DNA from: Planctomycetota bacterium
GTDB taxonomy: Bacteria; Planctomycetota; UBA8742; UBA2392
Length of the DNA: 64,000 bases
Direction: 5' to 3'
Assembly: GCA_016712285.1 (NCBI GenBank)
Contig: JADJRK010000001.1
Location: forward strand, 2,821,188 to 2,885,187
The position numbers and the translations under genes were made by a program. Position 1 is the stretch's first letter. The number at the start of each line of letters is the position of its first letter. The notes beneath the pieces were generated by a model. That model did not search any database, had not been told where the DNA came from, and was given only the letters and a program-made list of their open reading frames with translations. Positions 2,869-15,891 of this stretch are shown here, piece by piece.

Positions 2869-3879
2869 ATGCTTGAAGACGGCCACATCTTTGTCGCGGA
2901 CATTGCCGAAGGCCCTATCCACGCCGTGTACCTGGTGCAGGATGCGCGCAAGTTGACCACGCGCAACGGAAAGCCGTACCTTGCGCTTACCCTGATGGAC
3001 AACACCGGCAGCATCGGCGCCAAGCGCTGGGATGTGAGCGACGAAGAAGTCGCCACTGCCAAACAGGGCAGCTACCTCGAGATCACCGGGGCCGTGGAGC
3101 TGTACCGCAACGCACCCCAGATCATCATCTCGGCGCTTCGCCAAGCACAGCCGGAAGACATCCTGCGCGAAGCCTTTGAGCACTCACCCGAGTTTGACCC
3201 GGCCGACCTGTTGCAGCAGGTCAAGGACATGCTGCTGGGCCTGCACGATGAAGACCTGCGGCGGCTTGCACAGGCGTATCTTGACGATGATGCGTTCATG
3301 GCGCGGTTCGAAATCGGGCCCGCGGCGCAGCGCATGCACCACCCGTATCGTTTCGGCCTGCTTGAGCATGTGCACAGCGTGATGCGCCTTGGTGAGCGCA
3401 TGTGCGAGCACTACGCGTGGGTAGACCGCGGCATGGTGCTGCTGGGCCTGTTCCTGCACGACAGCGGAAAGGTCGTGGAACTGGTCGGCGAAGAGGCCCC
3501 CGGCTACAGCATCGAAGGCGAATTGCTGGGGCACATCACGATCGGCATCAACATGCTCGACCGAAAGTTGCAGGCGCTTGAGGGCTTCCCGCACCGCAAG
3601 GGCGTGTTGCTCAAGCACATCATCTTGAGCCATCACGGGCTGCAGGAGTGGGGCAGCCCAAAGCCGCCGATGACACCCGAGGCGCTGGTCGTACACACAA
3701 TCGAGATGATGGACGCCAAGATGAATGCGTTTCTGCGCGAGCAGGTTGAGGCGCCGGAGCAGACAGACGAGCTGGGCGGCCTGCGCTGGAGCAACCTGCT
3801 CAAGCGCAAGATCCTGACCACGGGCCCGGGCACAGGGCATGCGCCTTCCGCGCACGGCAACAACGGCGAATCTGAGTAA
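2869..3879 (+). CDS. OB-fold plus HD-domain phosphohydrolase (YhaM-like 3'-5' exoribonuclease family)
   Basis: Track ORF 2812..3879; N-terminal OB-fold-like segment (GKPYLALTLMDNTGSIGAKRW) followed by HD motifs (HSVMRLGERM, LFLHDSGK, ILSHHG). ATG at 2869 chosen over the TTG at 2812. Confidence 0.7.
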   Translation: MLEDGHIFVADIAEGPIHAVYLVQDARKLTTRNGKPYLALTLMDNTGSIGAKRWDVSDEEVATAKQGSYLEITGAVELYRNAPQIIISALRQAQPEDILREAFEHSPEFDPADLLQQVKDMLLGLHDEDLRRLAQAYLDDDAFMARFEIGPAAQRMHHPYRFGLLEHVHSVMRLGERMCEHYAWVDRGMVLLGLFLHDSGKVVELVGEEAPGYSIEGELLGHITIGINMLDRKLQALEGFPHRKGVLLKHIILSHHGLQEWGSPKPPMTPEALVVHTIEMMDAKMNAFLREQVEAPEQTDELGGLRWSNLLKRKILTTGPGTGHAPSAHGNNGESE

Positions 3880-3993
3880 ATTCCGCCCTAAGCCATCGCA
3901 TCAGAACCGTGGCAGCTGCCAGGATTTGCACCAAATGCAAACGCCGCGGATTACTCCGCGGCGTTGCGTTCCCTGCTGTGCATCAAGCTGGTC

Positions 3994-4019
3994 CCTTCCG
4001 GGCCCTAAGGCCCGGAAGG
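3994..4019. terminator. GC-rich perfect hairpin (ccttccgggcc-ctaa-ggcccggaagg) downstream of the HD-domain gene; no U-tract
   Basis: 11-bp perfect inverted repeat with 4-nt loop read directly from sequence; a second palindrome ccgcgg-attact-ccgcgg lies at 3943-3960. Confidence 0.4.
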
Positions 4020-4248
4020 TGCGGTGGTCAGTCAGGTTGCGGGCGGGCGATAAACCCGACTGATTCACCTTACCTTATTAAACGACTGGTTGGTTGCTTG
4101 TCATTCCCGAAGCGCACAAACACTCCAAATTCTTGCGAACTCACGAAGCTACTCACCTCACACCACCTTCCAAGGCCTCTTTGTGTTTGCGGTTACGCGC
4201 AACCTGCATACCCTTGAAGTGTTCCATTGCCTCTACTGAGGAGTCGCT

Positions 4249-5814
4249 ATGCGCTTATTCTTCACCTTGGCCATCTGTGCACTGACCCTGGTCGCCATTT
4301 CCGGCCTGGCCCGGGCAGAGCAGATTCGCCTCTCTGACGGGCGCTACCTGCAGGGCGAAGTCGCCGAGGTCAAGGAAGACGGCTTTGTCTTCAAGCTGAC
4401 CGATACCGGCGGCAAGGTGTTCCTGCGCTGGAGCCAGGTCGATGCCGGCTTGAAGAAGCGCCTGACGAACGACAAAGACCCGGACGAAGGGCTGAACCTG
4501 GAAGTCATGGTGCCCGGTGCACGCCTTGAGCTGATCGACGGCACGATTTACGAGGGCAACATCACGCAGGTCGGCGGCGGCTACAAGGTGGTCAACCGCG
4601 ACTTCGCCAAGGGCAGAACGATCGCGGATGCGGACGTGGTCGAAGAAGGCTACATCACCGACATCATGATCGACGCCTCGTCGATGATGGTCGAAAGCGA
4701 AGTGCTCAAGCTGGCTGAAGATGAGCGCTCACCGCTTGAGACAGCGCGCCAGTTCTACGAGATGGCACGCATCGCCGACAACCTGGGCCTGTACATGGAG
4801 GCCAAGGACTTTGTCACGCTGGCGCTGGCCGCCGGCCCCGATGCCAAGCTGGAAGCCCGCCTTACCGCATACGACGCGACGCTGGACGAGCTGATCCGGC
4901 AGAAGGGCCTGCTGACCGCGCTGGCCGGTGCGCGCCAGCTTGCCAAGAAGAAGAAGTTCCAGACCGCACTGGATGTGCTGACCAACGCCAAGAACGAGTA
5001 CAAGCCCACCGAGACCGTGCTGGCCAAGTGGGACCTGACCTACGCCGAGATTGACCTGCAGTTCACGGCCTTTGTCGTCACCGAGTGGTACAAGCAGATG
5101 CGCCCGGTGACCCGCACCAAACTGAAGGAAAAAGGCCTCACCATCAGCGACTGCATCAGCTGGGCGCGGCGCGAGATTGACAACATGATCAGCGCCAAAA
5201 TCGCCGAGCTTGTCGGCAGCACCACCGCCGACGACATGAAAAAGCGCTTCATCCAGCGCTTCAACCTTGAAGCCGAAGGCAAGCTGCGCCTGACCATGAA
5301 GAAGGCCAGCTTTGGCGAGACCGGCTTCTACCAGATCGTCGGCGGGCACCTGCCGATCAACGGCAAGAAGCCCGAGCCTGCGACGCCGACACCCCCGGGC
5401 GGGCGCCCGGGTCCCGGCGGCAGCGGGTCAGGCCCCGGCGGCGACCGCAGCGGCAGCGTGGTCCCCGGTGAAGACATCGGCGACTTCTTGAAGAGCCAGG
5501 GTTTCCAGGACAGCGAAAACAAGGGCGGCGAGCTGCCCGGCGGCATCAAGCCCGAGGACATCCGCGACTTCCTGAAGAAGATCGCCGGCGACGACAGCAA
5601 GTCAGACGGCGAAAAGAAAGACGGCGGCGCACCCGCCATCGGCAAGCAGGACATCTCGCACCTGAAGGTGCCGGCGACTGTGCCGACACTGCAGGAGTGG
5701 TGGGACGGCGCCAGCAGCACCACCAAGGCCAAGTGGCTTGAGGCTTACTATGCCCGCTACGCCGGCACGATGCGCGTGTTTGAACTCGACGACTGGAACG
5801 TGAAGTTCAAGTAA
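4249..5814 (+). CDS. secreted hypothetical protein with Gly/Pro-rich linker
   Basis: 521-aa ORF with N-terminal signal peptide (MRLFFTLAICALTLVAISGLARA) and a low-complexity G/P-rich segment near residue 360; no recognisable catalytic motif. Confidence 0.6.
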   Translation: MRLFFTLAICALTLVAISGLARAEQIRLSDGRYLQGEVAEVKEDGFVFKLTDTGGKVFLRWSQVDAGLKKRLTNDKDPDEGLNLEVMVPGARLELIDGTIYEGNITQVGGGYKVVNRDFAKGRTIADADVVEEGYITDIMIDASSMMVESEVLKLAEDERSPLETARQFYEMARIADNLGLYMEAKDFVTLALAAGPDAKLEARLTAYDATLDELIRQKGLLTALAGARQLAKKKKFQTALDVLTNAKNEYKPTETVLAKWDLTYAEIDLQFTAFVVTEWYKQMRPVTRTKLKEKGLTISDCISWARREIDNMISAKIAELVGSTTADDMKKRFIQRFNLEAEGKLRLTMKKASFGETGFYQIVGGHLPINGKKPEPATPTPPGGRPGPGGSGSGPGGDRSGSVVPGEDIGDFLKSQGFQDSENKGGELPGGIKPEDIRDFLKKIAGDDSKSDGEKKDGGAPAIGKQDISHLKVPATVPTLQEWWDGASSTTKAKWLEAYYARYAGTMRVFELDDWNVKFK

Positions 5815-5827
5815 CTGCCGTTCGCTC

Positions 5828-5862
5828 ACAGACCCCCGCGCTATGCGGGGGTCTCTGTTTTT
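5828..5862. terminator. bidirectional rho-independent terminator between convergent genes
   Basis: Hairpin agaccccc-gcgctatgc-gggggtct followed by ctgttttt; the stop codon of the minus-strand DMT gene (5841-5843) sits inside the loop. Confidence 0.6.
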
Positions 5863-6827
5863 GCAGGCAGCCGCGGACGCTTGCGCAAAAACTCGGCACT
5901 TATGTTTGCCAGCAGGATCATCACCGCCCCGAAAACAAGCCATCCATCCAGCCGGTCACGGCCGGCGACGATGCTGATAACTGAGGCAAACACCGGCTCA
6001 GCGGTGTAGACGATGGCGGCCCGCGACGGCAGCAGCTCTTTCTGCCAGCGGTTGAGCACACTGACGGCGACAACAGTCGCCAGCGTGGCGCACAGCAGCA
6101 TCGTGCGCCAGAACTCGACGCTCGACAGCGCCGCTGCAAGCGGTAACGGCTCAAACAGCGCAATGCCGCCGGGCGCAACCACGACCGCCACGGTTGTAAA
6201 CAGCGTCGCGAACACGAACATCACCAGCGTGACTGCCATCGGGTCGGCGCGCTTCGTGCCGGTGTCGGTCATCAAAATGTGCACGCCGAACACCACGGCG
6301 CACCCGATGGTGGCCCATGCGCCCAGCGAAAGGCCGCCCTGCGGCGGGCCCTTGATGTAGGCGGCGCCCAGTGTTGCCAGCAGCACGCCGATCATCACGC
6401 CGCGCGGCGGCAGGCGCCGAAACACAATCGCCGCGATCAACGGTGTTGCCACAACGTACAGGCTGGTCAGGAACGCCGACTGGCTGGGCAGCACGTCCGA
6501 CTGCGCCAAGCCGAAGATCTGCAGCAGAAAGCCCAGCGTAAACGGCAGGCTGAGCAGAAAGCCCCACTTCAGGGCCGTCCGGTCAAGGCGCTTGACGCTG
6601 CGGGGGACCACGATCGGCATCAACAGGGCGGCAACCAGGAAGCGCCACAGCAGAAAGAATGCCCCCACCGCGGCAGGCCGCTCGTCGCCGTAGATCGCCT
6701 GCAACGCGTCGGTGCCCTCTTTCATCCACAGGAAAGTCGCGCCCCAGAAGATGCAGACCGACAGCAGCGCCAAGATTGCGATCAGGCGCGTGCGCGGGCT
6801 CTGCACTGTGGTGGTCGGGTCCGGCAT
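5841..6827 (-). CDS. DMT-superfamily (EamA-like) transporter
   Basis: Track ORF 5841..6857; about 10 predicted TM helices in two halves typical of EamA/DMT permeases; start taken at ATG 6827 (MPDPTTT). Confidence 0.7.
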   Translation of the reverse strand: MPDPTTTVQSPRTRLIAILALLSVCIFWGATFLWMKEGTDALQAIYGDERPAAVGAFFLLWRFLVAALLMPIVVPRSVKRLDRTALKWGFLLSLPFTLGFLLQIFGLAQSDVLPSQSAFLTSLYVVATPLIAAIVFRRLPPRGVMIGVLLATLGAAYIKGPPQGGLSLGAWATIGCAVVFGVHILMTDTGTKRADPMAVTLVMFVFATLFTTVAVVVAPGGIALFEPLPLAAALSSVEFWRTMLLCATLATVVAVSVLNRWQKELLPSRAAIVYTAEPVFASVISIVAGRDRLDGWLVFGAVMILLANISAEFLRKRPRLPAKTETPA

Positions 6828-6885
6828 GGGTGGCAGAAGCGTAGACGCGCAATGCAATCACGCAATGCCAATCGCGCGCTGCCCT

Positions 6886-8655
6886 TTATGCCGACAGACG
6901 CTCGAGCTCGGATTCGACTGCCTCGACCAGCGGCTTGAGCGTTTCCGCGTCCATGCCAAAGCGCAGGCCGGCCGCCTTGAACAGGTCGCGCAACCCGCGC
7001 GAGCCGCCAAGGCTGAGGGCGTGGCGATACTTCGCCAGCGTGCCGACGGTGTCTTTGCGCGAGTGCAGCCACACCTGCAACGCGCCAATCTGCGCAATCG
7101 CGTACTCAATGAAATAGAACGGCGCCCAGAAGAAGTGGCCGATGTTGGTCCAGCGCGCGTCGCGGAACTTTTCCAGCCCGGTCCACTCGGTGCCCGCGTT
7201 GAAGCGCTGCGCCTGCGCGCGCCACTGCGCCGTCACGGCGTCGGCGCCTGCACCGGCATGGGTGTAGATCCAGTGCTGGAACTGGTCGCCCTGCGCGATC
7301 ATCACCAGCACCTCCAGCGTGCGTTCCAGTTGTTCTGCTTGCGCACGCTTGATGTCGGCCGGCGCATAGAACTCGTTGACGTGCGGCATGCCCAGCAATT
7401 CCATCGACATGCTGGCCACTTCGCAGAATTCCATGGGCGCGTGGCGATAGGCAAACAACGGCTGGTCAGCCGCCGCGAACGCGTGAAAGGCGTGGCCGCC
7501 TTCGTGCAGCAGCGTGCGCACGTCAGAGTCCAGGCCCACGGCGTTCATGAAGATGAACGGCAGGCGCGCCTCGCACAGTGTGCTCTGGTAGCCGCCGGGG
7601 GCCTTGCCCTCACGGTTGGCAAGGTCAAGCAGCCCCAGCTCGCGCATGCGGTCGAACTGGTTGCCGAGTGCCGGGTCAATGCGGTGGAAGATGCGCGAGC
7701 ACCCAAGCTTGAGCTGCTCCACGTCGTCAAAGGGCTTCAGCGGCGGCTTGCCGGTTGTGTCAACGTCAAGGTCCCACGGCCGCAACGACGGCAGGCCCAG
7801 CGCTTCGCCGCGCCGCTGCTGCATGCGCCGGACGGCCGGCAGCACGACCTGCTCTACGCCATGGGCAAACACGTCGCAATCGTCGGGCGTGTAGTCGAAG
7901 CGCAGATAGCTCTGCCACGTATAATCCCGAAAGTCGGCGCAGCCGGCATTGCGCGCGATCTGCTCGCGCAGCCGCAACTGGCCCTCGAACAGCCGTCCCA
8001 GGCCCTCATGCTCGGCCAAGAGCCGCTCGTTGCCCGCCCTCCAGGCCCTTTCGCGCAGGCTTCGGTCCTGCTCAAGCCCGAACTTTGCCATCTGCACGGG
8101 CGTGTAGCGGCTGCCCTCGAAGTCGATGGTGACCGCGCCCTGGACCTCGTCGAACTGCTTGGTGAGCTTGGCAAGCTCGGTCTGCAGCGGGATGTTCTCG
8201 GGCCGGTACAGCGCAAGCTGGGCCAGCACCGCGCGCTCGTAAACGGCGTATCGTGCGGGGTCAAGGGCGCTGCGCGCGGGGGCTGCCTGGAACTTGCGGT
8301 CCAGCGCGTCGATCGCCTGCTTCAGTTGCGGCTCGAACTTCTCGACCCAGTCCAGAAAGACCTGCTTGTTCTCTTCGCTGGCGGTATCCAGCGTGGTGCG
8401 AATGTGAATGCGCGCGCCGACTTCGTTGATGACCGCCGCGAGTTCACTGCTGTCGCGCATCCATTGTTCCAGCGCGTCGGCGTCGGCAAGGTCCGCGTCG
8501 ATCAAGCGCTGGAACAGCGGGGCTACGTCCTCATAGGCGCGCACGACCAGGCCTTGCGGCACAAAGCTGCGCGGGTAATTGCGGGGCAAGGCTTCGAGGG
8601 TGTCAGTCACAATGGCCTCCGTTGCCAGAATAACGCACCGGGGCCAAGGGGCCAT
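6886..8655 (-). CDS. M3-family oligoendopeptidase (PepF-like)
   Basis: 589-aa ORF containing the zinc motif HEGGHAFH and M3B-like architecture; the 715-aa + strand ORF 6712..8859 is its antisense shadow. Confidence 0.8.
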   Translation of the reverse strand: MAPWPRCVILATEAIVTDTLEALPRNYPRSFVPQGLVVRAYEDVAPLFQRLIDADLADADALEQWMRDSSELAAVINEVGARIHIRTTLDTASEENKQVFLDWVEKFEPQLKQAIDALDRKFQAAPARSALDPARYAVYERAVLAQLALYRPENIPLQTELAKLTKQFDEVQGAVTIDFEGSRYTPVQMAKFGLEQDRSLRERAWRAGNERLLAEHEGLGRLFEGQLRLREQIARNAGCADFRDYTWQSYLRFDYTPDDCDVFAHGVEQVVLPAVRRMQQRRGEALGLPSLRPWDLDVDTTGKPPLKPFDDVEQLKLGCSRIFHRIDPALGNQFDRMRELGLLDLANREGKAPGGYQSTLCEARLPFIFMNAVGLDSDVRTLLHEGGHAFHAFAAADQPLFAYRHAPMEFCEVASMSMELLGMPHVNEFYAPADIKRAQAEQLERTLEVLVMIAQGDQFQHWIYTHAGAGADAVTAQWRAQAQRFNAGTEWTGLEKFRDARWTNIGHFFWAPFYFIEYAIAQIGALQVWLHSRKDTVGTLAKYRHALSLGGSRGLRDLFKAAGLRFGMDAETLKPLVEAVESELERLSA

Positions 8656-8685
8656 ATCCGGATTCAGTATGAAATCTGCGGCGAC

Positions 8686-10044
8686 CTATTTCACAGCCGG
8701 GTCAGGTTCGCCCATGGCGATCAGCCGTGCGCGGCAGGCATCGGCGATCTCGCCCTGTCCTTCAAACGTGTCATAGGTCTTGCGGTACCACGCCGCGGCA
8801 TCGGCGTTGCGGCCCGCACCGTCATAGGCCTGGGCAAGCAGGTACATGCCGCTGGGTGACCCGGGCACCAGGCGCAATGCATGCTCAAGCCGGCTTGCCG
8901 ACACAGCCCAGTCGCTACGCCGCAGCGCCACAGCCCCGCCCATGAAACTGGGCCAGAAGCCTTCGCCGTCTAACGCCAGCGCCTTGCTGCTGCTTTGCTC
9001 GGCTTCGTCGTAGCGGCCCAGGTAGTACAGCGCCTGCGCGACGTTGACGTGCAGCACGGCATGGTCGCTGCGCTGGTTCACCGCCTGTTTGTACAGGTCC
9101 AGCGCCTGCTCAAGCTTCTGTTTGCGCACGGTTGCGTCTTCACTCTGTAGCGCCTCGCCGGCGAGCGCATCGCCGCGGTCGGCCAGGTCGTAGGCGGGCT
9201 GGGCCGCGCGCATGTCGACCAGGGCGCTGGTGTACTCGGCGTCGCCGCGGAAGTACTCGCCTTCTCCTTTGTATTCCTTCTCGAGTTGGCGACCCAGGTA
9301 GTCCACCCGGTTGCCGGGGTCGGGGTGGCTGGACAGGAACTCGGGCGTGCCGCCGCCGTGCTCGTGCGTGACTTCTTCCAGCATCCGCATCACGTTGATG
9401 ATGCCGTCGGGGTGATAGCCCGCGCGGGCGGCAAAGCGCATGCCGAAGGTGTCGGATTCTTTTTCGTTGTCGCGCGAATAGCTCAGGCTCAGCAACTGGT
9501 ACCCGACCAGGCCGATCAGCGCCACTCCTTCCATTTCTTCGCCGGTGCTGGCCACCAGCATCAGCCCGAGCATGACCAGCGTGGCCTCGCTCATGCGCTC
9601 AGTGCCGTGGCGCCCGAACACGTGCGTGACTTCATGGCCCAGCAGGCCCGCAAGTTCAGACTCGTCTTTCAGGCGCTGCATGATGCCGCGCGTGACAAAC
9701 ACGTGCCCGCCCGGCAGCGCGAACGCGTTGATCATGCTGGTGTTGACGACGTAGAAGTTGAACTCCCAGTCCGGGAACTGCGCCTCGCCCTTTAGCCGCG
9801 TGCGGCCGGCCTCCACGACCTTCTGGCCCACCCGGTTGACGTACTCCTGCGTGGCGCGATCGGGGTACAAGCCGCCGAGTTCTGCCACGATCGGCTGCAC
9901 GTTTTCGTCGCCGAGCTGTTTTTCGCTGTCGTAATCGTAGATGTTGAGCGTGGACTTGCCGGTGAGCGGGTCGGTCTGGCATGAGCTGACCAGCGGCAGA
10001 ACGGCAAACAGCAGGATCGGGATTGCGCGCAGCAGCAGTTTCAT
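8686..10044 (-). CDS. M48-family zinc metallopeptidase with C-terminal TPR repeats (lipoprotein)
   Basis: Signal peptide with lipobox (LVSSC), HExxH motif (LGHEVTHV) and TPR-like C-terminal repeats; AAGGAG Shine-Dalgarno upstream of the ATG. Confidence 0.8.
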   Translation of the reverse strand: MKLLLRAIPILLFAVLPLVSSCQTDPLTGKSTLNIYDYDSEKQLGDENVQPIVAELGGLYPDRATQEYVNRVGQKVVEAGRTRLKGEAQFPDWEFNFYVVNTSMINAFALPGGHVFVTRGIMQRLKDESELAGLLGHEVTHVFGRHGTERMSEATLVMLGLMLVASTGEEMEGVALIGLVGYQLLSLSYSRDNEKESDTFGMRFAARAGYHPDGIINVMRMLEEVTHEHGGGTPEFLSSHPDPGNRVDYLGRQLEKEYKGEGEYFRGDAEYTSALVDMRAAQPAYDLADRGDALAGEALQSEDATVRKQKLEQALDLYKQAVNQRSDHAVLHVNVAQALYYLGRYDEAEQSSSKALALDGEGFWPSFMGGAVALRRSDWAVSASRLEHALRLVPGSPSGMYLLAQAYDGAGRNADAAAWYRKTYDTFEGQGEIADACRARLIAMGEPDPAVK

Positions 10045-10095
10045 GGCTATCTCCTTGGCTGCCCTTTTATCCGCGTGCGCGCGGAAGCACAGCGG

Positions 10096-10530
10096 CTAGG
10101 CGTTCATGCAGCACTTCTTGTATTTGCGCCCGCTGCCGCAGGGGCAGGGGTCATTGGGGCCGACCTTGATCGTGGGCTTGCGCTGTTGCTTTTTCAACAG
10201 GTGCGCCGTGGCTGTGACGCGCGCGTAGTTGCCCAGCGCTTCACCGCCACTGAGCCGCCCCGCGTTTGCGCAGTACGCCAGGAAACTCTCCAGCAAGCCG
10301 GGCACGGCTTCGCGCTCGGTTTGCTCAAGTTGCAGGGGCCCAAGACCGATAGCAACGCCGTCGCGGATGCAGGTCTCATCAAGCTCTGCCGGGTCCGCGC
10401 CCGTGCCTTGCAGAAAGGCCACCAGCACCTGCCCGGCGCGTTCACCAAACGCCCGGGCCTGCATCTCGCCCGGCGTGCTGGTTAAATACTCGCTGACCCA
10501 GTGCTCTACGGTTTCAGTGTGCTGGCCCAT
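10096..10530 (-). CDS. SEC-C motif domain protein (YecA/UPF0149-like)
   Basis: C-terminal CPCGSGRKYKKCC metal-binding SEC-C motif; start taken at internal ATG 10530 (MGQHTETVEH) rather than the track start at 10818. Confidence 0.6.
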   Translation of the reverse strand: MGQHTETVEHWVSEYLTSTPGEMQARAFGERAGQVLVAFLQGTGADPAELDETCIRDGVAIGLGPLQLEQTEREAVPGLLESFLAYCANAGRLSGGEALGNYARVTATAHLLKKQQRKPTIKVGPNDPCPCGSGRKYKKCCMNA

Positions 10531-10899
10531 GGGCCCAGAGTAGATTCGAAAGCGGCCGACGCGAAGGCCAATCAACAGAGCCCGCCGCGTCAGCGGTGGG
10601 TTTCCGCGAACAGCGCAGCGCGAGGGCACGCGAACTGCAATTTGGCCACAAAAACACCAAAGCACTAAAGACAGCGTACCAAGAGCTTTCGTGGCAGTTC
10701 CTTTCGTGTTTTCGTGGCTAACCTGCAGTTGGCAGTTCTTTGCGGCCTTCGCGTTCTTCGCGTCGTGCTGTGCCATAGTCGCGCTCGCGTACGCATGGTT
10801 CATGTTGGCGTGGCGCATCTACCTGCGCTGAGTTGCAGCCGGAAACTCCCTTCCCGAAAGCGCCGCCAGAACCGACAATCCTTGGCCACAGGAGACACC

Positions 10900-12354
10900 A
10901 TGAAAGCTGAATGCCTTGAAGCCATTGACGCCGCGAAATCGCTGGGCGCGAACTATGCCGACGTGCGGGTGATTGAGTATCGCCGCGAAGGCGTCGCCCT
11001 GCGCAACGGCCACCCGTGCAACCTTGCCAGCGGCCAGTCCTTCGGCGCGGGCATTCGCGTCATCGTCAACGGGGCATGGGGCTTCGCCAGCACCAACCAG
11101 GTCACAGCCGCCAGCCTGAAAGCCACGTCTGCGCGGGCGGTCGAGATCGCCAAAGCCAGCGCACAGGTCAAGAAGCAGGACGTGCGCCTTGCCCCGAAGC
11201 CGCCGGTCGAAGACATCTGGTGCACGCCCTTCACCATCGACCCGTTCAAGGTGCCGCTGGAACAGAAGCTGGGCCTGCTGTTGCAGATCGACACCATCCT
11301 GCGCAAGAACCCCGCGGTGAAAGTCGCCAGCGCCGCGATGCAGTTCGCGCGCGAGAAGCAGTGGTACATGGACACCGACGGCAGCTTTATCGTGCAAGAC
11401 CTGCTGCGCAGCGGCGCCGGCTACAGCGCGACCGCGGTCGGCAACGGCGAGGTGCAGATTCGCTCATACCCGCAGTCATGGGGCGGCAACCACAAGTGCA
11501 TGGGCTATGAAATCGTGCACGCCTATGACCTGCTGGGCAACGCCGAGCGCATACGCGACGAAGCGGTGGCACTGCTCACTGCGCCCGCGTGCCCGTCCGG
11601 CCGCATGGACCTGATTCTGGACGGCCCGCAGCTTGCCCTGCAGATTCACGAAAGCGTCGGCCACGCCAACGAGCTCGACCGCGTGTTCGGCTATGAAGCC
11701 AACTACGCCGGCCGCAGCTTCATGCTGCCCGAGCTGCACAACCGCAAAGGCGGGTTCAAGTACGGCAGCCCGATCGTGAACCTGGTGGCCGATTGCACGG
11801 TGCCCGGCGGGTTGGCGACGATCGGCTACGACGACGATGGTGTGCGCGCGCAGCGCTTTCACGTGGTGCAGAACGGCATCCACAACGAGTGGTTCACCAC
11901 GCGTGAAACCGCGCCGCTGGTGGACCGCGAGGTTTCAAACGGCTGTAACCGGGCGGAGGGATTCAACAACATCCCGATCACGCGCATCCCGAATTTGAGC
12001 CTGATGCCGGGCGAGTGGGAGTACGACGCGCTGATCGCGGACACGAAAGACGGCATCATCATGGAAGTGAACAAGAGCTGGAGCATCGACCAGATGCGCC
12101 TGAACTTCCAGTTCGGGGCCGAGATCGGCCGCGTGATCAAGGACGGCAAGATCACGGGCATCGTGAAGAACCCGAACTACCAGGGCAACACGCCCGAGTT
12201 CTGGGGCGCCTGCGACGCCATCTGCAACCAGGACCACTGGGACCTGTGGGGAGTCATCAACTGCGGCAAAGGCCAACCCGGCCAAACAGCCGAGATGTCC
12301 CACGGCGGAGCACCAACAAGGTTCCGGGGTGTCGAGGTGGGGATTAGGGGATAG
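10900..12354 (+). CDS. TldD/PmbA-family metalloprotease
   Basis: Track ORF 10714..12354; family-like sequence from MKAECLEAIDAAK onward with the HESVGH region and glycine-rich C-terminus; ATG at 10900 preceded by GGAG. Confidence 0.8.
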   Translation: MKAECLEAIDAAKSLGANYADVRVIEYRREGVALRNGHPCNLASGQSFGAGIRVIVNGAWGFASTNQVTAASLKATSARAVEIAKASAQVKKQDVRLAPKPPVEDIWCTPFTIDPFKVPLEQKLGLLLQIDTILRKNPAVKVASAAMQFAREKQWYMDTDGSFIVQDLLRSGAGYSATAVGNGEVQIRSYPQSWGGNHKCMGYEIVHAYDLLGNAERIRDEAVALLTAPACPSGRMDLILDGPQLALQIHESVGHANELDRVFGYEANYAGRSFMLPELHNRKGGFKYGSPIVNLVADCTVPGGLATIGYDDDGVRAQRFHVVQNGIHNEWFTTRETAPLVDREVSNGCNRAEGFNNIPITRIPNLSLMPGEWEYDALIADTKDGIIMEVNKSWSIDQMRLNFQFGAEIGRVIKDGKITGIVKNPNYQGNTPEFWGACDAICNQDHWDLWGVINCGKGQPGQTAEMSHGGAPTRFRGVEVGIRG

Positions 12355-12826
12355 GCGTAGTGCCCTCAGCACCGGGCGGCAGTCGGAAATCAAAAGGGCC
12401 GTGAAGTTTGATCACGGCCGCTTGCACCTTGGATTGGAGTTCCTTGCATTTCTTGGTGCCCTTGATCGCGGCGTTGAGTTCTGGAATCAGCGCATGTCCT
12501 GGGTTGTCTGGGAGAGGATCGGCCGTCGCACTCAATCCCGTCTCGTGCAGTTTCGATATGCTGATTTCCGCGACACAGAACTGACCGGGTGCCTTGCCCT
12601 GCCTTGTTAACTCGTCAAAGCGCCGCTTGGCCACATCTTCGGGTTTGACGTACTTCTCTCGATCTGCAGACAGGCCAGTCGCGTCCCCTGGAGATGGCTC
12701 AAAGGCCTGGCGCTCCGCCCTTCCCTTTTCAGGGTCGCACCAGCCTGGGCGAACTGGCACCGCCCTAAGCAAGGTCTCCCTTGTTGAATCCACTGGATCT
12801 ACAGGTTCGATAGACGCCCCTGACAT
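12344..12826 (-). CDS. hypothetical protein (island gene 3 of 3)
   Basis: 160-aa ORF whose ATG lies immediately after the stop of the upstream gene (12829-12831); GC lower than neighbours; no recognisable motif; 3' end overlaps the convergent TldD gene by about 10 nt. Confidence 0.45.
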   Translation of the reverse strand: MSGASIEPVDPVDSTRETLLRAVPVRPGWCDPEKGRAERQAFEPSPGDATGLSADREKYVKPEDVAKRRFDELTRQGKAPGQFCVAEISISKLHETGLSATADPLPDNPGHALIPELNAAIKGTKKCKELQSKVQAAVIKLHGPFDFRLPPGAEGTTPIP

Positions 12827-12828
12827 TC

Positions 12829-13296
12829 TTAGCTCGAATGCAGGCGGCTGTACGACTTGTACAAGATCACGTTTCCTTGAAGGAATCCTGTCAACTCTGC
12901 AGAACCACTGGGATTGAACTGCAGTTCGATCTCTCCTTTAGGTGACTGGAACTCCCAATGGAATGCGATGCCACCGTCCACCGTTGGAATCACTCGGTCA
13001 GGCGGCGTGTCGTGTTGTTTTTTGGAGTCCATTGCAAATCGGCACGCAAGGCTCAAGGCGTTCTTACTAATGGACGCCAGGCCATCAGATTCGAACTGTG
13101 ACGGACTACGTCCCCACTCGACAAGCTTCTGATTGATCATTCGAGACCAACTTTCCTTCCACGCCTCCGGTGAACCCAGAATGCTAGCCTGTCCCAAATC
13201 GGTTTCGCAGGCCGTCGTCAGTACGAATTTAGATTGCGTGTCCGGTGCACCGAATACACTCTCAAGCCGTTCAGCGACTTCTCGCATTTCGATCAT
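12829..13296 (-). CDS. hypothetical protein (island gene 2 of 3)
   Basis: 155-aa ORF in a clearly low-GC stretch; start overlaps the upstream stop as ATGA (13293-13296); no recognisable motif. Confidence 0.55.
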   Translation of the reverse strand: MIEMREVAERLESVFGAPDTQSKFVLTTACETDLGQASILGSPEAWKESWSRMINQKLVEWGRSPSQFESDGLASISKNALSLACRFAMDSKKQHDTPPDRVIPTVDGGIAFHWEFQSPKGEIELQFNPSGSAELTGFLQGNVILYKSYSRLHSS

Positions 13297-14114
13297 CTCT
13301 TCATCCTCCAGTAGCTCAGCGCCTCGTCAGATGACATCGAACGGAATCCGGTGACTATTGCTTTTCGGCCTTCCAGCAGCCCCAATCGGATGTCATCGAG
13401 CGATCCATTCCCCGCCATCGGGCCCCTTGCCGTCAAGTTCAGCTCAAGCGAATCCGGGTCACGCTGCCTTCGTGGGTGTACATGGCGTACTCGAACATGA
13501 AGGCGTCCCTCTTTCTCGCCAATGCGGAAATGCCACTCGCCTCCCAAGTTTTCCAATTTCATATTCGGCAGGTCGGATCGGACTCCTGGCAACGACTGAT
13601 TCAGCAGGTTTGCCCAGTCCTTAGGCTCATTCCAAACTGATCCACGTGGGATAAGGTTCAGGTATGTCACCTCCCACTGATTCGCCTTTGGGGCCCCAAG
13701 CCCCATCCCCGAACAGAAGTCTACGAACGCTTGCCACCGTGCTTCAAACTGCGTCAAGCATGCCTCAAACCGGGGATACTGTTTCCCGTCCATTCCCAGC
13801 CAGTTCGAGTGAAGACGACCGTTTTGAAGCTGTACCATCCATTGGTTCGCCTTGTGTATAAACTGGCACCGACCGTCATTTGGCTTGTTGATGTTGACTC
13901 TCAATTGGACAAACATCTGCTCCATCTCGTCGAATGTTTCGAACTGGTCCGGAAGCGCTGTTTGTTCACGCACTGTGGGCCAGTCTTCACCGAGCTGACG
14001 CCAAAAGGCCCCCATGTGAGCAACTGTCCACTTTTCAAGTGGCTCGAACTGAACCCCAAGAACGGTCTCAACTACCGGCGGGTTCTCGAAGTCTGGTAAC
14101 TGGGTCTCGCTCAT
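13293..14114 (-). CDS. hypothetical protein (island gene 1 of 3; N-terminus reminiscent of the TIGR04255 family, unverified)
   Basis: 273-aa ORF in low-GC DNA (about 52-55% by eye); N-terminal FENPPVVETVLGVQFEP resembles, from memory only, the conserved N-terminus of TIGR04255-type proteins. Confidence 0.6.
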   Translation of the reverse strand: MSETQLPDFENPPVVETVLGVQFEPLEKWTVAHMGAFWRQLGEDWPTVREQTALPDQFETFDEMEQMFVQLRVNINKPNDGRCQFIHKANQWMVQLQNGRLHSNWLGMDGKQYPRFEACLTQFEARWQAFVDFCSGMGLGAPKANQWEVTYLNLIPRGSVWNEPKDWANLLNQSLPGVRSDLPNMKLENLGGEWHFRIGEKEGRLHVRVRHVHPRRQRDPDSLELNLTARGPMAGNGSLDDIRLGLLEGRKAIVTGFRSMSSDEALSYWRMKR

Positions 14115-14596
14115 TTCTTGTCTGAATCCGTGTTGGAACTACCTAGGAAAACAACGCCTCCAAGTGAACGAAGAATCCCTCGCCATCAGACTCTACCAAT
14201 GACACATTTCTTTGTGTCCGCCAAATCGTGTGCCGCAAATTGCTTGCTGGCAAAGACATACGACAAGTATGGTGTGTCAGTAACTTTTCGTCAAGTAGCG
14301 CTCCGCGTCGGGTTCGCCGCCATTCAAGTCCCGTCAGTGACAACGAGGGTGGCATGCGCGTCTCGCGCTTGCCGCAGTTCTTGACGGCCGCCATCGGCGG
14401 GACGCCGCTTAGGCTGGCTCAGGGCGGGCCGATGCCACTTTGGCTTGTGCTAGTTGCGTGGTTTCAGAGTCTTGTCGATGAAGCGCTGGATTGCGGCCTT
14501 TACTTCGGGGGCGCGCCATTGGTCGGCTACTTTTTTGTTGTGGTTGGTGAGGGCTTGTACGGCCTGCATTGTGGGGGTGGCGCGCGTTTACGCTGT

Positions 14597-14679
14597 CGCC
14601 CCTGGCGGGGCTTTGGGTCTTTCCGGGCGGTTTACCGGTGGCTTCCGCCACCGGCTATTGGCGGCCGCCCCTGCGGGGC
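14597..14679. repeat. cluster of GC-rich REP-like hairpins next to the IS200-like transposase gene
   Basis: Three short palindromes read from sequence: gcccc-tggc-ggggc, ccggtggc-ttcc-gccaccgg, ccgcccc-tgc-ggggcgg. Confidence 0.45.
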
Positions 14680-14708
14680 GGTACTGCCCTGGCGACATCG
14701 ACGGGCGG

Positions 14709-15239
14709 TCATTCCCGATCGTTTGCCTCGTGGGCGCCGCCGCTTGGCGTGGTGCCCGGTGGCGGCACACCTTCTGAATCGCGCTCGGGCGAAGCTGGGG
14801 GCGCGTCGGGCTCGTCTGTCAGGCCGTGCAGTTCTTTGAACTTGTTCAACTCTTCGGCGAGCGTTTGTTTCTTGTGGTGCTCGGCTTGGTTCTGGATGTA
14901 CTTCTTTGCCTTCTCAATGTGTGAGATGCTGACCGAAAACACGCCGTAGCCTTCCTGCCAGCCGAATTCGTGCCTGGGCCAGGTTTCGTGAATCCACTTT
15001 GACGTGTTAGATTTGATGTCGCGCAGCACGTCTGAAACTGCGTGACGTGGCGCGAACCCGATCAGCAGGTGGGTGTGGTCCTCCACTCCGCCACCTTCGA
15101 GCAATACGCAATCTCGCTTTCGCAGGATGCCGCCAACGTACGGGTAGAGACGTGCGGCGATTTCGGGGACGATCAGCGGTCGCCGATCCTTGCAGGCGAA
15201 GATGGCGTGCAGCGTGACGCTGTGGTACGTGCTTCCCAT
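14709..15239 (-). CDS. IS200/IS605-family Y1 (HuH) transposase, TnpA/RAYT-like
   Basis: Track ORF 14709..15356; HuH motif (EDHTHLLIG), conserved downstream SKW and GYGVFSVS segments, EHHKKQT tail; ATG at 15239 (MGSTYH). A P/G-rich C-terminal tail of about 35 aa is atypical. Confidence 0.7.
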   Translation of the reverse strand: MGSTYHSVTLHAIFACKDRRPLIVPEIAARLYPYVGGILRKRDCVLLEGGGVEDHTHLLIGFAPRHAVSDVLRDIKSNTSKWIHETWPRHEFGWQEGYGVFSVSISHIEKAKKYIQNQAEHHKKQTLAEELNKFKELHGLTDEPDAPPASPERDSEGVPPPGTTPSGGAHEANDRE

Positions 15240-15333
15240 GCACGCACAATAACCGACGTCGCCGGATCTGTCGCCTTTGGAAGGGCTCGGTTCGTGCTTG
15301 TTGCGATGCGGGCGACTTGCTTTCTTGGCGGCT

Positions 15334-15891
15334 ATGCCCGACGCGCATTCTGTCAACCTGCCGGTTCTCCGCCGCCGCTACGCCGACGTGCGGGCCATGT
15401 TGGCGGCTGTGCGCGGGCTGCTGGAAAAGCTGGACTTTGAGGAAATGAAAAAGTCGACCAAGCCGTCGGGACGCAATCTCTGGGAATCGCTTTCGTTCTG
15501 GCTTTGCTACCGCGGGCCCTTCCTGAACATTGTCGAGGGCGTGCCGCACGCCACGTCAGGCGTCATCAATGCCCCGCGCGGCTACACGCTGGAACAGGCA
15601 TGGCAGGCATGGGACGAATCTGTCGCGCGTGCCGACCGGATCATGGCGACGTTTTCTGTCGAGCGCTGGAACACGGACGTGGACTTCTGGATTGACCGTG
15701 AGAAGACGCGCCGCATGAAGGCATGGGAGGTCTTTCTTGCTCACTTCGCCGACCGCCTCGAACACGACTGGCGGATGATGCTTGAGGACATCTGCACCGT
15801 GGGCCACCAGAAGTGGCTGGAAAGCCTGATCGGCGAAGACTGGTACTACTTCCGCGAAGGCGAGAGCCTCAAGGACGTCTACCCGCAGTAG
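15334..15891 (+). CDS. hypothetical protein
   Basis: Track ORF 15277..15891; start taken at ATG 15334 (MPDAHSV); Trp/His-rich helical protein with no secure family assignment. Confidence 0.5.
   Translation: MPDAHSVNLPVLRRRYADVRAMLAAVRGLLEKLDFEEMKKSTKPSGRNLWESLSFWLCYRGPFLNIVEGVPHATSGVINAPRGYTLEQAWQAWDESVARADRIMATFSVERWNTDVDFWIDREKTRRMKAWEVFLAHFADRLEHDWRMMLEDICTVGHQKWLESLIGEDWYYFREGESLKDVYPQ

Follow-up and report, generated by a model that had tools for sequence, protein, structure and literature searches.

A mobile three-gene cassette of a Planctomycetota genome codes for TIGR04255-family, acidic and predicted ADP-ribosyltransferase-fold proteins: a candidate tripartite conflict module

The cassette described here lies in a 64-kb window (the whole stretch of DNA that was analysed) and consists of three translationally coupled genes on the minus strand, coding for proteins of 273, 155 and 160 amino acids: ORF1 (13293-14114), a TIGR04255-family protein, ORF2 (12829-13296), a small acidic protein, and ORF3 (12344-12826), a protein predicted from its structure model to have an ADP-ribosyltransferase (ART) fold. 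The coordinates, strands and lengths are exactly those of the first-pass annotation, and a direct reading of the sequence bore out the packed junctions that it had described (an ATGA overlap, and a start at 12826 after a stop at 12829-12831). The stop codon of ORF1 and the start codon of ORF2 share the ATGA at 13296-13293, and the TAA of ORF2 (12831-12829) is followed by a 2-nt spacer (GA) and by the ATG of ORF3 (12826-12824). The 3' ends of ORF3 (stop at 12346-12344) and of the convergent tldD gene (stop at 12352-12354) overlap. A terminator-like hairpin at 12419-12397 was dismissed, as it is part of the ORF3 coding sequence and shuffled sequences give matches of this kind no less often.

The sole sigma70-like match between positions 12000 and 15600 is found upstream of ORF1, in a predicted promoter region on the minus strand (14232..14297) with a putative -35 TTGACG (14294-14289), a 17-nt spacer and a putative -10 CATACT (14271-14266). 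Upstream of ORF1, one block alone could be aligned with locus L001, a 66-71%-identical relative; the match falls within it, and about 30 nt downstream of the predicted -10 are also conserved. From this match and alignment we infer that the TTGACG/CATACT block acts as the cassette promoter, and the predicted block marks the upstream boundary of the cassette. The segment between it and the start of ORF1 (14115..14231, minus strand) is probably a 5' untranslated leader; it is poorly conserved in the alignment with L001 and has no Rfam match.

The neighbours named at first, a TldD/PmbA gene and an IS200-like transposase gene with REP-like hairpins, were confirmed by HMM matches. The downstream neighbour is a TldD/PmbA-family protein with three Pfam domains, and the gene at 14709-15356, outside the cassette, codes for an IS200/IS605 Y1 transposase (NF033573, 68.6 bits for a cut-off of 55; PF01797, E=2.3e-25). 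The REP-like hairpins are accounted for by a GC-rich double hairpin (14635-14680), which matches the Rfam family Acido-Lenti-1 just above the gathering score. We consider it most improbable that the trio is a cargo of this IS200-like element, or else a secreted polymorphic toxin with its immunity protein (T6SS-, CDI- or Rhs-type competition). IS200-mediated mobilisation was rejected because the Y1 transposase gene recurs beside no other trio, and no terminal repeats bracket the cassette; the IS200-like gene only shares this variable slot with it. A single inverted repeat spans the cassette (12253-12269 / 14369-14385; 17 nt, 88%); it was rejected as a transposon end, since one arm lies inside the conserved tldD coding sequence and a repeat of this quality is expected, by our own estimate, about once by chance in 4 kb. 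Against a secreted toxin, ORF3 is a stand-alone protein of 160 amino acids that lacks an N-terminal delivery domain, a signal peptide and transmembrane segments, no secretion genes lie nearby, and the gene order and the obligate third gene are atypical of that class.

A TIGR04255 gene followed by ORF2-like and ART-fold genes was found in about 90 loci from at least three phyla, a plasmid and a viral contig, and the trio is obligate in these loci (80 species-level genomes, mostly of Planctomycetota, one plasmid and one viral contig). The dN/dS ratio was about 0.06-0.25 for most genes (pairs with usable dS), which indicates purifying selection. The three genes co-evolve as a unit under this selection, and the ORFs are real genes rather than chance frames because of the ~90 homologous trios and the low dN/dS. 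Comparison of the loci showed that the trio moves between unrelated genomic contexts and replicons: its flanks are almost never conserved, and its contexts in other genomes are unrelated. The trio of a Mycobacterium paragordonae plasmid adjoins a relaxase gene, that of the viral contig adjoins an integrase gene, that of locus L044 is embedded between hsdM and hsdS of a type I restriction-modification (RM) locus, and one genome carries divergent double copies of the cassette. Among the viral contigs scanned the cassette was rare (1 locus in two scans); in tblastn searches, an annotated phage collection contained no ORF1 and no ORF3-like protein, and an annotated plasmid collection contained no ORF3-like protein and ORF1 in one Mycobacterium plasmid only.

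Conservation of the cassette at the same locus was then checked among relatives. It was absent downstream of tldD in 8 contigs whose TldD is 81-87% identical to that of the window, and it was present there in a single lineage (TldD 84-89% identical), so that relatives with a tldD just as similar are without it. One clade keeps the cassette beside hutU through a dS of ~2, and this retention over a long divergence indicates stable vertical inheritance in that subclade. The immediate neighbours of the trios are overwhelmingly housekeeping genes, RM methylases making up ~3/108, so that there is no general enrichment in defence islands. The first-pass annotation had proposed a candidate acquired accessory or defence module read as one coupled transcript, and this is supported at candidate level by a self-contained unit with its own predicted promoter; its accessory status agrees with the patchy presence at tldD among relatives, the varied contexts and the occurrence on a plasmid and a viral contig.

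ORF1 matched the NCBIfam model TIGR04255.1 over its full length (64.2 bits for a cut-off of 30; model positions 2-251 of 252), which bears out the likeness to this family first suggested by its N-terminus, and the identical GenBank protein (P0003) is named 'TIGR04255 family protein'. The family is described in NCBIfam as a 'sporadically distributed' protein of unknown function, and the literature searched contained no mention of it and no published function. The protein was modelled with confidence as a duplicated beta-alpha-beta(3-4)-alpha cradle, which bears a distant, weak resemblance (TM ~0.3) to guanidino/protein-arginine kinases and TBP, and glutamine-synthetase-like ligases are also among its closest folds. 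Of the three genes, ORF1 varies least (mean identity 46%), and the strands of its product carry invariant polar residues (E16, R82, Q95, Q97, N104, E148, N153 and R204). The guanidino-kinase sequence signature is absent from the 40 family members examined, and an ATP:guanido phosphotransferase (phosphagen / McsB) catalytic domain was not detectable in ORF1 by sequence. With so weak a fold match the role of ORF1 is guesswork; we propose a sensor/regulator or a partner enzyme.

ORF2 directly follows the TIGR04255 gene in 84 of the 85 loci. It evolves faster than the other two genes (mean identity 31%), and all members of its family are acidic (median pI 4.7) with conserved residues W50, W61, P76, P99 and G108-G109. 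It has no Pfam match and no PDB match; a match to a Holliday-junction resolvase (E=0.05, profile against PDB sequences) was dismissed as not significant, and none of the three family profiles had a significant match among PDB sequences. A protein of 287 amino acids (P0230) that could have been an ORF2-ORF3 fusion was rejected, as it looks like a frameshifted assembly. We propose that ORF2 is an ART-binding neutraliser or adaptor (antitoxin-like).

The earlier statement that none of the products has an assignable motif fails for ORF3. Its structure model (pLDDT 93) is a single compact domain of 160 amino acids with the split beta-sheet of ART/NAD+-binding folds, and a fold search placed it closest to Tpt1/KptA (ART superfamily, PF01885), then to pertussis-like, Rhs, RES and DarT toxins. 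R21 is located in strand 1 (18-24; LLRAV, LYRRIP in the family) and is conserved in at least 90% of sequences, and S53 is located in strand 2 (52-56; GLS) and is invariant in 111 sequences; by analogy with the R/H of strand 1 and the S/Y of strand 2, a pattern which they fit, these would be the NAD+-binding positions. The catalytic [QE]-x-E of the R-S-E clade is absent from ORF3: the equivalent strand (111-114) begins with H111 (PGHALIPE), which is invariant and takes the position of the catalytic Glu of classical ARTs. The family consensus is H-A-E (E113 in ~74%), and the protein of the window has H-A-L-I-P-E. Lacking the classical catalytic Glu, the ORF3 of the window might not be a transferase at all. 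With a median pI of 5.9 the family is mildly acidic, an unusual property in a toxin targeting nucleic acids. Giant 'ORF3-like' proteins (1,600-4,800 amino acids, 7-11 stretches) proved to be spurious leucine-rich-repeat proteins unmatched by the family HMM.

Bacteria use ART-fold enzymes as toxins in toxin-antitoxin and anti-phage systems, and we propose that ORF3 is a putative NAD+-dependent effector or toxin. The only PADLOC family matched by the cassette was PDC-M32, no other family, the CmdT-type ART included, giving a match. PDC-M32 is a two-gene candidate (A, ~375 amino acids; B, ~125 amino acids), one of the PDC systems which were predicted by 'guilt-by-embedding' and which their authors present as candidates only (Payne et al., bioRxiv 10.1101/2024.01.29.577857). 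ORF3 matched PDC-M32B with E=3.6e-10 (profile positions 5-111 of 123), as did 25 of its 67 relatives at E<=0.01. ORF2 resembles the C-terminal ~90 positions of PDC-M32A: 30 of the 72 family members matched at profile positions ~261-353 of 375 (best 1e-5 to 1e-6), the ORF2 of the window weakly and at positions 302-342 only (E=0.035). These profile matches show ORF2 and ORF3 to be distant homologs of the A(C-terminal)/B pair of PDC-M32. The order, an A-like then a B-like gene, is the same, and trio L044 is itself embedded in a type I RM locus. However, the similarity is remote, there are three genes here instead of two, and no cassette protein matched PDC-M32A over its full length (~375 amino acids); its N-terminal ~260 positions are unmatched, and ORF2 is preceded instead by a TIGR04255 protein of about that size, encoded by a gene of its own. 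Neither ORF1 nor its 39 relatives matched PDC-M32A or any other PDC-M32 model. The defence candidacy put forward at first thus gains from the distant kinship of ORF2 and ORF3 with PDC-M32 and from the predicted toxin-type ART fold of the terminal gene.

We think that the trio is probably an autonomous coupled operon forming a tripartite ART-based toxin-antitoxin or abortive-infection-type conflict module. ORF3 would use NAD+ in modifying or depleting a target inside the cell, which would arrest growth. Its nearest folds (Tpt1/KptA, DarT) and the invariant His replacing the catalytic Glu suggest that the acceptor may be a phosphate or nucleic acid rather than the arginine of classical protein ADP-ribosylation. 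ORF2, which is the only partner domain in common with PDC-M32, is always acidic and evolves fast, would bind and neutralise ORF3. ORF1, the most conserved component, with a polar patch on its TBP/guanidino-kinase-like sheet, may be a sensor or regulator that frees the toxin when phage infects or the element is lost or, alternatively, an enzyme acting against, or controlling, the modification made by ORF3. The benefit to the carrier would be phage defence or element addiction.

The missing classical Glu and the mild acidity of ORF3, the weak fold match of ORF1, the housekeeping neighbours, the rarity in viral contigs, the absence from the phage collection and the retention beside hutU count against such a conflict module. 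A non-conflict role would be the NAD+-dependent processing of RNA or nucleotide ends, or a regulatory ADP-ribosylation, in the service of host physiology; ORF3 would be a minimal Tpt1/KptA-like enzyme, with ORF1 and ORF2 as its substrate-binding or ATP-dependent partners. We regard it as unlikely, in view of the patchy distribution even among close relatives, the lack of a conserved neighbourhood and of an RNA ligase, 2H or macro domain partner, the mobility genes beside the plasmid and viral-contig trios, the divergent double copies, the embedding in a type I RM locus and the homology to a defence-candidate pair. PF01885 (PTS_2-RNA) matched neither ORF3 nor any of its 67 relatives, even at E<=1, and the compact model leaves no room for the separate N-terminal RNA-binding lobe of Tpt1. 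The conserved residues (R21/S53/H111) also differ from those of Tpt1/KptA, which is a stand-alone repair enzyme, whereas ORF3 belongs to a mobile three-gene cassette.

Within the conflict module, the roles of the partners could be exchanged: ORF1 would be the true antitoxin, an enzyme reversing or preventing the modification made by ORF3 as the macrodomain protein DarG does against DarT, and ORF2 would act as a scaffold or as an adaptor for specificity. For ARTs, antitoxins that work as enzymes are already established (DarTG), and the high conservation of ORF1 (46%), its enzyme-like invariant E/R/Q/N set and its closest folds, ATP-dependent guanidino kinases and glutamine-synthetase-like ligases, would suit such a role. 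However, PDC-M32 keeps the ORF2-like domain, not TIGR04255, with its ART, which makes ORF2 the universal partner; the fold search found no likeness of ORF1 to known folds that remove ADP-ribose, such as macro, ARH or NADAR, and none of the 40 members has the guanidino-kinase signature. We therefore hold this exchange of roles to be quite unlikely.

Comparison of the trio with known ART systems gave a plausible working model in CmdTAC (PD-T4-9; Vassallo et al., Nature 2024, PMC11618068), a tripartite anti-phage system of toxin, antitoxin and chaperone in which the ADP-ribosyltransferase acts on mRNA. Both have three genes and an ART-fold effector, that of CmdTAC being held inactive by its partners, and the trio may likewise comprise a sensor, a labile neutraliser and an ART toxin. 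Unlike CmdTAC, it has no SecB-like chaperone, the fold matches of ORF1 being guanidino kinases and TBP. It differs from DarT-DarG and from the RES-Xre systems (MbcT/MbcA, ParT/ParS, NatRT) by its obligate third gene and its other predicted catalytic residues, and Pfam RES (PF08808), DarT (PF14487), macro and Xre domains were not found in the cassette proteins. More tentatively, the trio might represent a previously unrecognised tripartite abortive-infection/toxin-antitoxin family, widespread in Planctomycetota and found also in other phyla and on mobile elements, in which a TBP/guanidino-kinase-like TIGR04255 sensor or enzyme controls a Glu-less, Tpt1-like 'R-S-H' ART with a phosphate or nucleic-acid target; PDC-M32 would then be a cousin with a different N-terminal module of ~260 residues fused to the ORF2-like adaptor.

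These results give the uncharacterised family TIGR04255 a first functional context. If the proposal is true, this NCBI-named family of hundreds of members can be assigned a testable role, that of obligate partner to an ART-fold effector, and an architecture of three components, with a Tpt1-like core and an unusual His-for-Glu configuration, joins the ART conflict repertoire (DarTG, RES-Xre, CmdTAC). This configuration and core may hint at an ADP-ribosylation chemistry or target that is new. To our knowledge, there is very little experimental phage-defence biology in Planctomycetota, and the trio would be among the first candidate immunity or toxin-antitoxin modules defined for them.

The AT-rich character first noticed by eye was borne out by windowed GC: the cassette has a GC content of 0.547, against 0.635 +/- 0.023 in same-size windows across the 64 kb (z = -3.8). 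It is the lowest-GC stretch of the window, the 11 of 1245 windows that are as low or lower all overlapping it. The GC contents of ORF1, ORF2 and ORF3 are 0.543, 0.519 and 0.580, and their GC3 values are 0.62, 0.57 and 0.60, compared with 0.86 in tldD. The low GC fails as a sign of recent acquisition, because it is a family-wide trait: the cassette is ~6 points lower in GC than its flanks in 57 of 59 genomes, the hutU clade included, and follows host GC (r=0.79, slope 0.88). Persistently low GC in cassettes of this kind can therefore characterise a whole family and need not date a transfer.

The three minus-strand ORFs of the cassette, ORF1 (273 aa, 13293-14114), ORF2 (155 aa, 12829-13296) and ORF3 (160 aa, 12344-12826), lie exactly where the first-pass annotation had placed them. 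Reading of the sequence gave the junctions it had described: the ORF1 stop and the ORF2 start overlap as ATGA (13296-13293), and the ORF2 stop TAA (12831-12829) is followed, after two bases, by the ATG of ORF3 (12826-12824). The ORF3 stop in turn overlaps that of the convergent TldD/PmbA-family gene (tldD), which together with an IS200/IS605 Y1 transposase gene (14709-15356, minus strand) forms the expected surroundings of the cassette. The listed tldD ORF (10714-12354, plus strand) opens at GTG 10714 with a 62-residue Arg-rich extension, and its true start is likely the ATG at 10900 (MKAECLEA...), where its homologs begin. On the upstream side of ORF1, conservation with the closest relative, L001, is limited to a block of about 64 nt, which contains a predicted sigma70-like promoter (TTGACG, 17 nt, CATACT), the only such match in the region; the cassette thus spans from about 14297 to 12344.

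The tentative placing of ORF1 in TIGR04255 was borne out by a score of 64 bits against a curated threshold of 30, and 401 ORF1 homologs were detectable. With each species represented by a single genome, 80 ORF1 loci were found, mostly from Planctomycetota (Planctomycetaceae, Pirellulales, Phycisphaerae, Tepidisphaeraceae, Gemmataceae and Kuenenia) and also from MAGs labelled Hydrogenedentota, Opitutales and Chitinophaga. Of 85 loci searched with HMMs of the downstream genes, 84 proved to have an ORF2-like gene and 81 an ORF3-like gene, every miss being a contig that ends too early. The genes overlap or are separated by at most a few tens of bases across the trio loci, and remote ORF3 homologs led to seven further contigs with this arrangement (about 260-300, 137-163 and 123-169 aa). 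The TIGR04255 gene and the ORF2-like and ORF3-like genes are therefore a conserved, obligate unit. Their pairwise-identity matrices are correlated (r = 0.57-0.69); ORF1 evolves most slowly (mean identity 46%), followed by ORF3 (42%) and ORF2 (31%), and six independent pairs gave dN/dS values of 0.06-0.25 for most genes. Along the operon, dS increased from ORF1 through ORF2 to ORF3 in the close pairs L030/L041 (0.14, 0.28 and 0.41) and L061/L074 (0.11, 0.33 and 0.79), a gradient that suggests recombination or module exchange inside the cassette. The metagenomic protein P0230 (287 aa) looked like an ORF2-ORF3 fusion, but its middle section resembles neither family, which makes a frameshifted assembly likelier than a genuine fusion.

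Structural comparison of the ORF3 model leaves little doubt that this protein has the fold of an ADP-ribosyltransferase (ART). It matched pertussis-like ArtA (5.6) and Tse2 (5.4), the Rhs toxins TreX and TreTu, heat-labile enterotoxin, RES toxins, DarT, diphtheria toxin, Scabin and pierisin. R21 and the invariant S53, on the first and second core strands respectively, form the classical R-S arrangement, while the strand that usually bears the catalytic Glu opens with an invariant H111 (H-A-E in the family consensus, H-A-L-I-P-E in the window protein). ORF3 has neither a Pfam family nor a sequence match in the PDB, and by their membership criteria it falls outside the R-S-E, Tpt1, RES and DarT groups. 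In GenBank, the Planctomycetes MAG from which the window comes has it at just 96 aa (P0002, IPK87_11805); the 160-aa frame is kept in relatives (157 aa in P0001) and the N-terminus absent from the shorter call carries the R21 and S53 motifs, so that the latter is likely a start-codon mis-annotation.

ORF2 had no match in Pfam or PDB searches. However, 30 of 72 members of its family matched the C-terminal part (profile positions about 261-353 of 375) of the A protein of PDC-M32, a predicted two-gene phage-defence candidate of PADLOC, while PDC-M32B was matched by the window ORF3 (E = 3.6e-10) and by 25 of its 67 relatives. ORF2 and ORF3 are thus distant relatives of the PDC-M32 proteins; the trio lies outside that system, since it lacks a full-length A protein and has an additional obligate gene. 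In the literature searched, TIGR04255 is unmentioned and PDC-M32 appears in a single paper. We regard the trio as a putative ART-based conflict module, new in its three-component architecture, and it is fairly probable that it is of the TA or abortive-infection type. On the model of the ART-fold toxins of TA and defence systems, namely DarTG, RES-Xre and CmdTAC (PMC11618068), ORF3 would most likely be an NAD+-dependent effector causing growth arrest. That its acceptor is phosphate or nucleic acid is hinted at by the Tpt1-like core and by the His in place of the catalytic Glu; the mildly acidic pI of ORF3 is a weak argument against direct binding of nucleic acid. ORF2 would most likely bind and neutralise ORF3, being the sole partner domain in common with PDC-M32, fast-evolving, and acidic across all genomes (median pI 4.7); ORF1 could be a sensor or regulator, or else a partner enzyme. 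Our confidence in these individual roles of ORF1 and ORF2 is low. The benefit of such a module might be phage defence or element addiction.

The GC content of the cassette is 0.547 against 0.635 ± 0.023 in equal-size windows across the 64 kb (z = -3.8), which upholds the atypical composition first noticed by eye and makes it the lowest-GC region of the window; GC3 is 0.57-0.62 in its genes and 0.86 in tldD. Compared with its flanks, the cassette had the lower GC in 57 of 59 loci (mean difference -6.4 points; Wilcoxon p = 3e-11), its GC followed that of the host (r = 0.79, slope 0.88), and the deficit was kept in a vertically inherited clade beside the urocanase gene hutU despite a dS of about 2. 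The low GC is therefore a trait of the family and not a tool for dating the insertion in the window.

An acquired block, as the first-pass annotation had proposed, agrees with the comparison of relatives at tldD. The cassette is absent from eight metagenomic contigs (TldD 81-87% identical), which extend 1.5 kb or more beyond tldD, each with a different sequence there, and is present at this site in the single lineage L001-L004 (TldD 84-89% identical). Downstream of tldD, one contig (L100) has an IS3-like transposase, another (L095) a low-GC segment (50-52% GC) with a 473-aa ORF, and two (L096 and L097) three unrelated ORFs and, beyond these, a 70-aa ORF homologous to the window gene at 15277-15891 (plus strand, 204 aa), which has no Pfam family and is conserved near tldD in relatives. 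The differing content defines 12355-15276, from tldD to the 15277 gene, as a variable slot, occupied in the window by the cassette together with a hairpin motif and the IS200-like gene.

Flanks are practically never shared between loci (395 neighbouring ORFs in 366 clusters), and the neighbours are mainly housekeeping genes (urocanase, aminotransferases, OTCase, ThiC, aconitase), with RM methylases in about 3 of 108. Several contexts are consistent with mobility. On a Mycobacterium paragordonae plasmid, a TIGR04255 gene and genes for 181 and 143 aa, with overlapping starts, directly follow a MobF relaxase, the second matching PDC-M32A and the third both the ORF3 HMM and PDC-M32B. On an 85-kb contig from IMG/VR the trio is flanked by a tyrosine integrase and a ParB-methylase gene, one MAG has two copies only 45/32/30% identical, and in L044 the trio and an IS5-like insertion separate hsdM (E = 4.5e-121) from hsdS (E = 1.9e-31); hsdM is also immediately upstream of the trio in L022 and L028. 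The L044 locus (3767-10352) resembles a small defence island, in the order two small ORFs (possibly a DUF433/PIN-type TA pair, from the look of their N-termini), hsdM, trio, IS5-like transposase and hsdS, and its ORF3 C-terminus departs from the family GPF ending as though clipped by the IS insertion. However, the absence of the trio from the phage collection and its rarity on viral contigs count against high mobility, as does the largest recurrent neighbourhood found: in L007, L011, L037, L052 and L060 the same gene lies directly upstream on the same strand, matching urocanase (hutU) Pfam domains in four of them, and these four or five cassettes are mutual nearest relatives, which indicates long vertical inheritance at the hutU site.

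The only Rfam match in the 64 kb is a GC-rich double hairpin at 14635-14680 (plus strand), which matched the complete model of Acido-Lenti-1 (RF01687) with 38.4 bits against a gathering score of 37; in the literature searched, this motif appears only in its first listing. The hairpin is on the strand opposite to the Y1 transposase gene and 30-75 nt past its stop, a position which suggests that this 'sRNA' motif, itself little studied, may belong to the hairpins of the REP/IS200 type.
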